From NCBI RefSeq assembly GCF_030013205.1, contig NZ_CP122648.1: a DNA stretch of 64,000 nt; one strand, given 5' to 3'. The position numbers and the translations under genes are program-made. Origin of the DNA: Escherichia coli. GTDB taxonomy: Bacteria > Pseudomonadota > Gammaproteobacteria > Enterobacterales > Enterobacteriaceae. A model generated the notes under the pieces. That model saw nothing but the letters and a program-made list of their open reading frames with translations. It made no database searches and was not told where the DNA came from. Below are positions 3,471-57,398 of the stretch, piece after piece (position 1 is the stretch's first letter; each line of letters starts with the position of its first letter).

Positions 3471-3820
3471 ATATGTCGCTCGCAGAACTCAACAAGCCTG
3501 CTCATTAAGTAGCAGTAAGTCTCGTTGGCTCTTCCTGGTTCAACATCAACACCTACCCTTGAGCAGATATCGAATGCCATGTGAGCGCACTCATGGGCAA
3601 TAGTAGATAGTTTGCCATTGAACACGCCTATCACATGCAAAACACCATTCTCGCTACTCATTGTATGAGACGCTCCGTTGGCGTCCGAGTCATGCACGTC
3701 AACGCCAAGTTTTTGATGCAGGCGTTGCCATTCTGGAAAGTCTCTACAAAACACAATTGTACCGCTCTCAAAGAGCGGAACGAGCATCTTTGGTACGTTT
3801 CCAATGTTAACTTTTTTCAT
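3455..3820 (-). CDS. Small HExxH-motif protein, putative zinc metallopeptidase-like (moron)
   Basis: 121 aa containing IAHECAHMAFD (HExxH) and several Cys/His residues; AGGA RBS. No homolog recalled. Confidence 0.55.
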   Translation of the reverse strand: MKKVNIGNVPKMLVPLFESGTIVFCRDFPEWQRLHQKLGVDVHDSDANGASHTMSSENGVLHVIGVFNGKLSTIAHECAHMAFDICSRVGVDVEPGRANETYCYLMSRLVEFCERHIKKPE

Positions 3821-54148: not shown

Positions 54149-54953
54149 CATGACTCCTTGCTCATCGCATGAAGACTCCGAGAGTGAACCCCGTTAGAAA
54201 GGGTCACACGCATGCCCCAATACAAAATTATTTGCTCGCCTCTATCGTTGCCATTTCATCAAAAGAGGAAAAGACAATGATAAAAAAGTTACAAATATGT
54301 TAATGAATAAACCAAATTGATCCCGTAATTATATTACGCCGCAAAATCCTTACAATAAACAGGTTTTTATTGAGCAAATTTGCATTTTTCGACAGTGATC
54401 AATTTATAGCGAAATTGTCACGATCTCACCAATTTGATCTACGACAATTTATCGTGTTTTGCAGATTTTTTTCAAGAATTAAAAATTGATTTATATCAAA
54501 ACCAACCAAATATGTTAATTATGTATAAACCATAGATCATTGGTGATTTTATTGTTAATTTATTGTGAAATATTTATGCAACACAATTATTACAATGAAA
54601 AGGTATAGATAAAAAACCAGTGTTTTATTTAACAGAACCGCCTTATCCACTTTTTATAATACCAATTGATTAGATTAGCCAATTTGTTGCTATTTTACAT
54701 AACATATTTTTATCAAAGTTAATTGATTGTTGCGTTTATGAGCACCGGCCGTAAGCCCGTTATGTTATTGTTTCATTAGTAATAATCACTTAAATGTATC
54801 GATGAAACAGGTATGACTTAGCGGGAGTGATTGTTTCTGAGTGAACAGAGACCACTTTCGCCTGATAAATGAAAAATGAGCGATTTTTGCAAGTTAGTTT
54901 TTCTATAGCCGAGTACGCTCAGCGCCTCGCTTGATTACAATGAGGTTGCTGCT
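54149..54953. promoter_or_regulatory. Long AT-rich region upstream of cydA (cydAB control region) merging into accessory DNA
   Basis: About 800 bp of AT-rich non-coding DNA with TTGAT-containing motifs; cydAB is known to have a complex FNR/ArcA-regulated promoter. Individual sites not resolved. Confidence 0.4.
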
Positions 54954-55898
54954 ATGAGTCCTGATAATATCAGTTCTGCTGTCAATCGCTTCTCAGGTTG
55001 GCCATCTAATGATCCTCTAAAAACAGATAAAGAATCAATGACATCACCCATGACTGTGCAGGTAATAAAGATGATTGCCGCCATCCTTGACCCACATCGG
55101 ATAGTCGTTGGAATCGATACACTTTATACAACGCAGCGCGAAACATTTACCTCAGAGAGTCAACAGCTCATTGAATCAGCATTGCAAACACTTCATGTGA
55201 TGAATTTAAATAACCTGGAAACAAATCTCGATGAGGAAGGTCACTATCTGGCTTTTGGATATAACGTTGACACTCCTGACAGAATAACCGTTTCTGCTTA
55301 TAATGAAAAAAAGCCTGGCTGCTATGGCCAATGTCTTTTAATACAGGATGACGAAACAGACTTATTTAACCTGATAAAAGTTAAAATTTTTGAAGCCAGA
55401 CATAATTATGTCGCTCAATTGATGAGCGATCCGGAATTTATGTTCAAATTTAGTTATAGCGCTCAACAAAATAGATTAGAACCTCATCTTCTGGTTCCCA
55501 CTTATTTCCCTCTAAAAACAAACGAACCGGTTACGCAAGAGGATGTACTGTTACTTTATCGTTTCTTTAAAATGGATGGTGATTTTAATATATTAACATC
55601 AGATGAATACATGAGCATCATGACACCTCTGATGAAGTGTGAGCGCAGCATCCACGACCACAACAGGTATGTGACGGGCAAAGATACCCTTCTTCTGGAC
55701 TATCCTCCTTCTGGTAACCAGATATATTTCCATATTTTTCCTGACGAATCAGCAACACTAGTCCTTTATTTTTCAAACAATGACATTGAATGTTTCGTCT
55801 TTGAAAGAGATATTCCGAGCCAGTATCGCTTTTTCAAAATGTTTACCAATCTGGCACTGGTTATTGATCAGTTAACCGATGCCAATCAAATACTTTAA
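54954..55898 (+). CDS. Hypothetical protein (AT-rich accessory gene)
   Basis: 314-aa ORF with GAGG RBS; AT-rich codon usage unlike the flanking core genes; no motif recognised. Confidence 0.55.
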   Translation: MSPDNISSAVNRFSGWPSNDPLKTDKESMTSPMTVQVIKMIAAILDPHRIVVGIDTLYTTQRETFTSESQQLIESALQTLHVMNLNNLETNLDEEGHYLAFGYNVDTPDRITVSAYNEKKPGCYGQCLLIQDDETDLFNLIKVKIFEARHNYVAQLMSDPEFMFKFSYSAQQNRLEPHLLVPTYFPLKTNEPVTQEDVLLLYRFFKMDGDFNILTSDEYMSIMTPLMKCERSIHDHNRYVTGKDTLLLDYPPSGNQIYFHIFPDESATLVLYFSNNDIECFVFERDIPSQYRFFKMFTNLALVIDQLTDANQIL

Positions 55899-55978
55899 TT
55901 TTTATATATTCCCTGTGGCAAATATTGCTAAACAATGCCCGGGGATTAATTTTTATTACTCACGGAAAGATTTAAATA

Positions 55979-56401
55979 ATGATCCCATCTCAAATCTCTT
56001 TCAACACCCTTCCTGTCAATGCAACATACGCTTCAGAGACAACAGTTGACACACAAAAATTCTCTGACATCCTCTACTCAGCGGGGTGTTCCCTAAAGGA
56101 TCTGGCTTATCTGAGCAGATGTCTGGCATCAATACATCCGACTATCGCCAAAAACATTTATGAAACAGAAAATCTCAGCGATCAAAAATTACTACATATT
56201 GATTGCCGTAGTACAAATGAAATCAAGATAAATATCTTTTTTGGTCAACAACGAGAAGGATTAATTGAAATTAGTTCTGACACAGTCATTTTTTCGATAC
56301 TGTCTTCATTGATTGACTCCACCATTTCTAAATTTCAACACCAAAACCCCGTTAACGGTTCTGTAAATCCTGACCTATTGTATGAGGATTATACTGATTA
56401 A
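55979..56401 (+). CDS. Hypothetical protein (AT-rich accessory gene)
   Basis: 140-aa ORF immediately downstream, same strand, acidic C-terminus; no motif recognised. Confidence 0.5.
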   Translation: MIPSQISFNTLPVNATYASETTVDTQKFSDILYSAGCSLKDLAYLSRCLASIHPTIAKNIYETENLSDQKLLHIDCRSTNEIKINIFFGQQREGLIEISSDTVIFSILSSLIDSTISKFQHQNPVNGSVNPDLLYEDYTD

Positions 56402-56948
56402 ATCCCTCCTGTCGCGAAAAATGGCCTGCGTTATTGCCAGACGTAATAAAACTTTTGATTAACGTTTCTCGTACTGGTAGCACCTTCATGTACTTTTCTT
56501 TTTTACGAAAAATCAAAAGAGCTAACAAAGGTCATAATTCGCATGAATCATTAATTATTTGTTATTTTCAACATTATTTTTACATTAAGCAGAGATGAAT
56601 TGCTGTGAAATTCGACTTAACTTTTATGAAATGCATTTACTCATGGCTAAAGCCACGTCACAAAAATGCAAATTAGAAGTTGATCACAATTATCTCAATA
56701 CATCAAATCAAGTTAATTTTAAAAATTTAACATTCATGACATCAGTTGACATAACACACTGAATTAAAATGAGAATTTGAAAACACACTTTAAACAATCA
56801 TTTCCCGAAAGACATTTTGAAAATAGATCAATTGCAACATTACGGTCAGATAAAGACACTCCTGTGATATTAAACCTGTGCCGTTATGAACGGCCATAAA
56901 TACGACGTGTGTAACTTATTTTACTCTCTGTCTTACAAAGGATTACCC

Positions 56949-57398
56949 ATGAAGAAAGCAACACTTGTGATTGGCGTTATTGGCGCGGACTGCCATGCAG
57001 TAGGCAATAAAGTTCTGGACCGCGTTTTTAGCAACCATGGCTTCAGAGTCATTAATCTGGGCGTAATGGTCAGCCAGGACGAATATATTGATGCGGCCAT
57101 TGAAACTGGCGCTGACGCGATTGTCGTCTCCTCTATCTATGGGCATGGCGATATCGATTGTCTGGGCATGCGCGAACGCTGCATTGAGCGTGGGCTGGGT
57201 AACATCCTGCTCTATGTGGGCGGTAACCTGGTGGTCGGAAAACATGACTTCGCTGACGTGGAAACCAAGTTCAAAGAGATGGGATTTGATCGCGTCTTTT
57301 CCCCAAGTCATGACTTAGAAGATGTTTGTCAGCTGATGGCCCACGATATCAACCAACGTCATGACGTTGATACTCGCATTCTTGAAGAGGCAATCTGA
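56949..57398 (+). CDS. Glutamate mutase S (sigma) subunit, B12-binding
   Basis: Starts [23 protein letters not shown] (cobalamin-binding DxHxxG-type motif); about 149 aa; track ORF begins 21 codons upstream. Confidence 0.85.

Follow-up and report, generated by a model that had tools for sequence, protein, structure and literature searches.

A conserved probable promoter region with candidate LysR-type regulator sites upstream of the glutamate mutase operon in an Escherichia coli genomic island

The window analysed here is a stretch of 64,000 nucleotides of E. coli DNA (contig NZ_CP122648.1 of assembly GCF_030013205.1), in which a genomic island carries the glutamate mutase operon. Upstream of the operon lies a non-coding gap of 547 bp (56402-56948), bounded on one side by a 140-aa ORFan, whose stop codon ends at 56401, and on the other by the annotated ATG of glmS at 56949. 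Downstream of the gap, glmS is followed by glmL, glmE and genes that encode methylaspartate ammonia-lyase, an AtuA-like protein and a DUF4387 protein; a dicarboxylate/amino-acid symporter gene, a class I fumarase gene (FumD mesaconase) and cobO then end the glutamate mutase operon region. The gene for a LysR-type transcriptional regulator (LTTR), located on the opposite strand, comes after cobO and is followed by sucD. The segment 54100-57400 is 100% identical to pig ETEC/O139 strains, and of 5426 complete E. coli genomes 1135 (21%) carry the island, none of them with an annotated feature inside the gap.

A reading made from the sequence alone (hereafter the sequence-only reading) had described an AT-rich gap of about 550 bp before a glutamate mutase operon. 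The gap is real, and the gene content confirms the name given to the operon. GC content is ~0.30 overall and 0.28-0.33 along the length of the gap, versus 0.50-0.59 in the operon coding sequence. A GlmS-based scan of species-representative genomes yielded 80 loci, among which an AT-rich stretch 5' of glmS proved general in Enterobacterales, the closest ORF of 90 aa or more lying ~200-1400 bp away and the GC content being ~0.25-0.42. A literature search by locus tag and topic returned no study of the glmS promoter, no start-site data and no small RNA at this locus. An in-frame ATG at 56886, absent from other genera, would lengthen GlmS by 21 aa; it is probably not used as the GlmS start, since the annotated start has a good Shine-Dalgarno sequence. 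The features of the gap are collected in Table 1.

Table 1. Features of the region upstream of glmS, in window coordinates; positions relative to transcription refer to the predicted start.
Feature	Position	Strand	Basis
Distal half of gap (256 bp), tail of E. coli-specific insert 54795-56657	56402-56657		Comparison with other Escherichia
Proximal half of gap (291 bp), ancestral glmS upstream (regulatory) region	56658-56948	+	78% identity to E. whittamii and Escherichia sp. E1V33
Far block, AAATAAGA-N6-TCACAAA	56670-56691	+	Alignment across genera; TCACAAA at least 85% conserved in 32 species
Far-upstream CRP-like block, AAATTAGAAGTTGATCACAATT	56670-56691	+	16/22 positions of the CRP consensus
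Conserved TGA	56760-56762		Alignment
Distal imperfect dyad, ATCATTTcccGAAAGAc (ATC-N11-GAT in most genera), candidate regulator site	56797-56813		Centre ~-62
Conserved TTTT..GAAnGAT	~56801-56814		Alignment
Invariant 18-mer, TGAAAATAGATCAATTGC	56818-56835		Identical in 32 non-redundant Enterobacteriaceae species and 24 aligned sequences
Predicted -35 hexamer, TTGCAA	56832-56837	+	TTG invariant; fixed 17-bp distance in 52/53 Enterobacterales loci
Predicted -10 hexamer, GACACT	56855-56860	+	Constant spacing, freely diverging spacer
Conserved GACACTC	56855-56861		Alignment
Predicted 5' UTR, ~82 nt	56867-56948	+	Start inferred from -10
Conserved ATTAA	56869-56873		Alignment
Small hairpin near predicted 5' end, GCCGTT-atg-AACGGC	56881-56895	+	In minimum-energy fold
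Shine-Dalgarno region, AAAGGA (AGAGGA in most genera), 6 nt before ATG	56937-56942	+	AGAGGATT at least 85% conserved
glmS, methylaspartate/glutamate mutase subunit S, first gene of operon	56949-57398	+	RefSeq annotation of identical sequence

Comparison of the whole cydA-glmS interval with other Escherichia species divided the gap into two halves. Positions 54152-54794 represent the cydA upstream region common to other Escherichia species, while the following segment, up to 56657, is almost wholly E. coli-specific and holds both ORFan genes together with the first 256 bp of the gap. With the exception of one 42-bp piece, the distal half has no homology in E. whittamii or Escherichia sp. E1V33, and homology restarts at 56658-56660. 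Among 7 Escherichia alleles, variable columns amounted to 23% of the distal gap, which also has several 1-bp indels, compared with 13% of the proximal gap and 17% of the glmS coding sequence. An IS1 lies directly upstream of the distal half in one strain, and no conserved elements were found in the distal half. By these comparisons, the distal half came in with the two ORFan genes and is unrelated to the ancestral control region. The gene 5' of the glmS region differs by taxon (cydA, a GntR-family gene or cobalamin-related genes), and the blocks of the proximal half are kept in Citrobacter, Klebsiella, Salmonella, Enterobacter, Buttiauxella and others; the proximal half travels with the operon regardless of its upstream neighbour.

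Both ORFan genes (54954-55898, 314 aa; 55979-56401, 140 aa) are low in GC, and their proteins had no match in Pfam, NCBIfam, PADLOC or PHROGs. E. whittamii and Escherichia sp. E1V33 lack the segment bearing them, Escherichia sp. MOD1-EC7003 has lost part of it, and in some E. coli strains it has been hit by IS1 or IS3.

Alignments of the proximal half revealed islands of conservation set in otherwise unalignable DNA upstream of glmS. No column varies among the 7 Escherichia alleles in the 45 bp from 56793 to 56837, a stretch that includes the 18-mer. Species that share this invariant 18-mer have GlmS proteins only 84-93% identical to that of the window. The 18-mer/19-mer block occurs a single time in the 64-kb window, and each Enterobacteriaceae locus contains it once, on the sense strand and always 5' of glmS. 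Absolute invariance over 18 bp across genera is the one unusual feature of the element. Such a length exceeds the usual need of one transcription-factor site and may reflect a second factor or some other constraint.

The conserved blocks also define a promoter-like pattern, ATCA[AT]-TTGnnn-17 bp-nAnAnT, of which 52 of the 53 Enterobacterales loci have a single copy, on the sense strand and no more than 400 bp upstream of glmS; the 53rd deviates by one position. It was found nowhere else in 1.2 Mb of fetched loci searched on both strands, and in none of the 24 loci outside Enterobacterales (other phyla/classes). The spacer is always 17 bp long and its sequence is unrelated between genera. Variants of the -10-like hexamer in other loci include GAAACT, CACACT, CACATT and CATATT, always with A at position 2 and T at position 6, the two bases that sigma-70 recognises most stringently. 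We assigned the -35 and -10 hexamers on account of this fixed spacing and the conserved TTG, A2 and T6. The hexamers are 17 bp apart, within the 17 ± 1 bp of sigma-70 promoters, and TTG, A at -11 and T at -7 are conserved. This architecture is probably that of a weak sigma-70 promoter with a start near 56867. Because GACACT matches just 3 of the 6 consensus positions, a simple promoter scan missed it on the plus strand; in fact, the consensus promoter/terminator scan gave promoter-like matches on the minus strand only, at chance level. A promoter this poor probably needs an activator. An alternative -10, TATTAA (56868-56873), would shift the start ~13 nt downstream and place the two dyads described below near -56 and -75; it was ranked second because it is conserved only in Enterobacteriaceae and its distance to the -35 varies in Yersinia and Morganella.

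These results bear on the sequence-only reading in two ways. Its suggestion that the gap could hold a promoter with regulator sites gains support from the promoter-like element in the proximal half, conserved in all but one of the Enterobacterales loci, and from strongly conserved motifs, the opposite of the motif-free region that would have spoken against it. Its view of the whole gap as a long leader, however, does not agree with the conserved promoter, which implies a predicted 5' UTR of only ~82 nt, or with the lineage-specific character of the distal 256 bp, acquired with the two ORFan genes.

The invariant 18-mer contains TGA-N7-TCA, a T-N11-A dyad at 56818-56830 with its centre at 56824 (~-43 from the predicted start), which abuts and overlaps the predicted -35. 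A CTGA-N7-TCAATTG form of this proximal dyad is kept in Yersinia, Hafnia and Budvicia. Its left half-site varies among motif-bearing genera as TGA, CTGA, CTTA or TTCA. In the distal dyad TTTT and GAAnGAT are conserved, and AAGAT is retained in Yersinia, Morganella and Hafnia. The centres of the two dyads, ~-62 and ~-43 from the predicted start, compare with LTTR recognition and activation sites near -65 and -35. A dyad of the T-N11-A type in the promoter region and a linked LTTR gene are both present at this locus.

The island LTTR is a protein of 301 aa with HTH_1 and LysR_substrate domains, encoded at the opposite end of the island, at a distance of ~10 kb. Its best family match was GcvA, at 221.8 bits and below the cut-off of 288, which places it, as judged from its sequence, in the GcvA/DsdC/AmpR branch rather than as GcvA itself. 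Orthologues 62-64% identical are encoded within 4 kb of glmS in five Yersinia species, and orthologues 42-45% identical are divergent from and adjacent to glmS in Aromatoleum and Rhodoferax; LTTR genes are classically placed in this way, divergent and next to their targets. E. coli and Yersinia agree exactly in the recognition helix of the LTTR, TQSAVFRQ, and in the DNA core ATCAATTG of the upstream region. The E. coli LTTR gene is neither adjacent to nor divergent from glmS, and upstream of the LTTR gene, where a motif copy would point to autoregulation, one sequence alone came near it, differing at 1 position from a degenerate pattern, as expected by chance. In the Aromatoleum LTTR-glmS intergenic region (positions 3505-3520 of locus L072), GGATAAATTGCCAC resembles the enterobacterial AGATCAATTGCAAC at 11 of 13 positions, a similarity that may be due to chance.

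The most likely candidate to bind the invariant 18-mer is this GcvA/DsdC-like LTTR of the island. We consider it fairly probable that the gap is the control region of the operon, enlarged by unrelated DNA, with a weak sigma-70 promoter activated by the LTTR. In the proposed mechanism, the LTTR would bind both dyads within the frozen ~45-bp stretch and, given some effector, would turn on the weak promoter; the CRP-like far block would add catabolite control, and AT-richness, a likely target of H-NS, would add silencing. Both the identity of the binding protein and its action as an activator rather than a repressor are what we infer from the conserved DNA and the linked gene. An LTTR has been listed in the enterobacterial cluster (PMC4682846). 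In O157:H7, no tested condition switched on these genes (PMC4682846), which fits a weak, activator-dependent and possibly silenced promoter.

The proposed control region shares several traits with known LTTR-dependent promoters, of which gcvTHP/GcvA, ampC/AmpR and benA/BenM are examples. It has a predicted weak sigma-70 promoter, a T-N11-A dyad abutting the -35 and, some two helical turns farther upstream, another dyad, and the predicted positions of the two dyads resemble those of activation and recognition sites; moreover, the operon has a linked LTTR gene from the GcvA/DsdC/AmpR branch, divergent and adjacent in Betaproteobacteria. Unlike at such promoters, the E. coli LTTR gene lies at the far end of the island, convergent with the last gene of the operon, and the stronger dyad is the promoter-proximal one and not that near -65. 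In base composition the setting also resembles H-NS-silenced islands, the upstream region having ~30% GC in a genome of ~51% GC; the island occurs in only about a fifth of E. coli genomes, and the operon was silent under every condition tested (PMC4682846). Judging from its base composition, the glmS promoter is probably H-NS-silenced.

A different explanation accepts the promoter and assigns the invariant block not to the island LTTR but to a global regulator or nucleoid protein of the chromosome (one of the CRP/FNR family, IHF, Nac or H-NS) or to an UP-element contact of RNA polymerase, which we regard as possible, though rather unlikely. The A/T-rich block sits where UP elements and class II activators do, the LTTR gene in E. 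coli is 10 kb distant, and invariance across genera would suit a conserved host factor. Moreover, ATCAA-N4-TT, present in most genera, partly fits the IHF consensus WATCAANNNNTTR; however, the fit breaks down at both end positions of that consensus and, in E. coli, at TT as well. The TTGA-N7-TCAA spacing is likewise wrong for CRP and for FNR (N6 in the same frame), and no FNR-like site with up to 2 mismatches was found near the promoter, the only such match in the gap (56680-56693) not being conserved as an FNR site. Sites of global factors are normally degenerate rather than invariant, and the motif was confined to this promoter across the window and every fetched locus, as would suit a local regulator dedicated to it. 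Sigma-54, ArgR, Nac and IHF, compared by their consensus sequences, were each rejected, their key positions or spacing not fitting or not being conserved in E. coli or Yersinia. At 54486-54499 the cydA upstream region contains a perfect FNR consensus, TTGATTTATATCAA; other genera have this region too, and it presumably belongs to the known oxygen-responsive control region of cydAB.

As to CRP, the far block has a perfect right half (TCACA) and a left half of TTAGA, with its centre at 56680.5, ~186 bp upstream of the predicted start. No other sequence of the window matches with at most 3 mismatches, for which chance alone predicts 0.44 per 64-kb window, and the block is not significant by itself. 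CRP usually activates from positions between -41.5 and -92.5, and the block lies farther upstream than standard activation by CRP at this promoter would allow. It may bind CRP on behalf of an upstream promoter that has escaped recognition, or it may be a distal LTTR site; GcvA has far-upstream sites at gcvT. A second, CRP-driven promoter upstream found no support, there being no conserved -10 at a suitable distance. Relative to CRP-dependent catabolic promoters, the resemblance lies in the consensus match with its perfect half-site and in the catabolic nature of the operon, and the difference in the distance and the degenerate left half-site. Yokenella and Enterobacter sp. ENT03 have a perfect TGTGA-N6-TCACA, TGTGATTGAAATCACA or TGTGATTGATATCACA, ~250-300 bp upstream of glmS, and these cores support, at the level of sequence, catabolite control of the operon somewhere in the order.

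Two GATC (Dam) sites, 56681-56684 and 56826-56829, lie 145 bp apart, one in each of the two conserved blocks in Enterobacteriaceae; they are not kept in Yersinia, Morganella and Hafnia, where AATC or TATC is found instead. OxyR and Dam give heritable ON/OFF expression at agn43, and GcvA loops DNA at gcvT. A two-site switch, of which the invariant 18-mer would form part beyond the role of a simple operator and in which the LTTR would compete with Dam methylation at both GATCs to produce heritable ON/OFF glutamate fermentation, or alternatively a looping of the far block to the promoter by the LTTR on a gut-specific signal, is conceivable by analogy, and we regard it as speculative and improbable. 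If true, either version would explain the lack of known inducing conditions.

It is very unlikely that the gap is a functionless spacer left by insertion of the island, with the real promoter elsewhere, for example by read-through from the ORFan genes. The distal half is indeed variable and indel-bearing, an IS insertion is tolerated nearby, and no terminator is predicted after the 140-aa ORF, but the blocks of the proximal half are more conserved than coding sequence and species without the ORFan genes keep the same blocks.

Equally slight is the probability that the gap hides an unannotated gene for a small protein or a small RNA. The gap contains small ORFs of 54, 55, 40 and 58 aa, distributed over both strands; they had no family match, they are disrupted by single-base indels among E. 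coli alleles, and none is retained in other genera. Outside the motif blocks the sequence is unalignable between genera, and the invariant block has no 3-base periodicity, nor was a terminator or an Rfam match found. Locus-tag numbering omits one tag between the 140-aa ORFan and glmS in two strains (an E. coli 86-24 derivative and FDAARGOS_448), which favours a hidden gene to the extent that the skipped RefSeq tag suggests a feature once called in the gap and later withdrawn.

The search for RNA structure was negative throughout. With E values up to 10 allowed, the best Rfam matches of the window region had E values of at least 1.2, belonged to eukaryotic snoRNA, miRNA and lncRNA models and fell far below gathering scores; across 18 orthologous loci nothing reached a gathering score, the cobalamin riboswitch included. 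Folding energy relative to shuffled sequences gave z = -0.03 for the predicted UTR, and it was z = -1.1 for the whole gap, and UTR folding across 41 species gave a mean z of +0.14, that is, no signal. RNAalifold on 24 species returned a 4-pair consensus of -0.18 kcal/mol in which no change was compensatory, and the promoter/terminator scan found no terminator-like sites in the gap. A riboswitch or structured leader is rejected. The sequence-only reading had allowed for a structured leader, which the Rfam search, the folding z-scores and the RNAalifold consensus contradict; its expectation that the gap would hold no compact riboswitch was borne out in the window and in the 18 orthologous loci. 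Hairpins of unrelated sequence do recur within the first 50 nt after the -10 in several genera (seven loci), with a mean z of -0.84 over 35 non-independent species; E. coli alone gave z = -0.37, which is not significant. Such a 5' hairpin is at most a stabilising stem, and its significance is doubtful.

That the B12-dependent mutase genes are under a long structured leader (for example an attenuator, or a riboswitch for adenosylcobalamin or an amino acid) is scarcely tenable. In its favour, glutamate mutase needs adenosylcobalamin, the gap has the length, several genera have a small hairpin close to the predicted 5' end, and cobalamin riboswitch leaders (RF00174) likewise form a long region 5' of genes for B12-dependent enzymes. 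The Rfam, folding, RNAalifold and terminator analyses, all empty, largely refute it; unlike RF00174 leaders, the region has neither a match, in the window or in the 18 orthologous loci, nor a conserved structure, and its conservation consists of ungapped invariant DNA blocks at fixed spacing rather than of paired columns.

With the LTTR-activated promoter as the favoured reading, the main correction to the sequence-only reading is twofold: unrelated inserted DNA makes up half of the supposed leader, and the gap contains no RNA device. The glmS control region is an uncharacterised example of a familiar class of element, otherwise routine. Genes of the methylaspartate pathway occur in about one in five complete E. 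coli genomes, O157:H7 and pig ETEC among them, and many opportunistic Enterobacterales carry them too. A single published attempt at inducing them, made in O157:H7, was unsuccessful (PMC4682846), so that their regulation poses a question, though a niche one. The analysis provides a defined promoter candidate, a frozen control element of 45 bp and a named candidate regulator, and with them a practical route toward learning how this silent pathway gets switched on.
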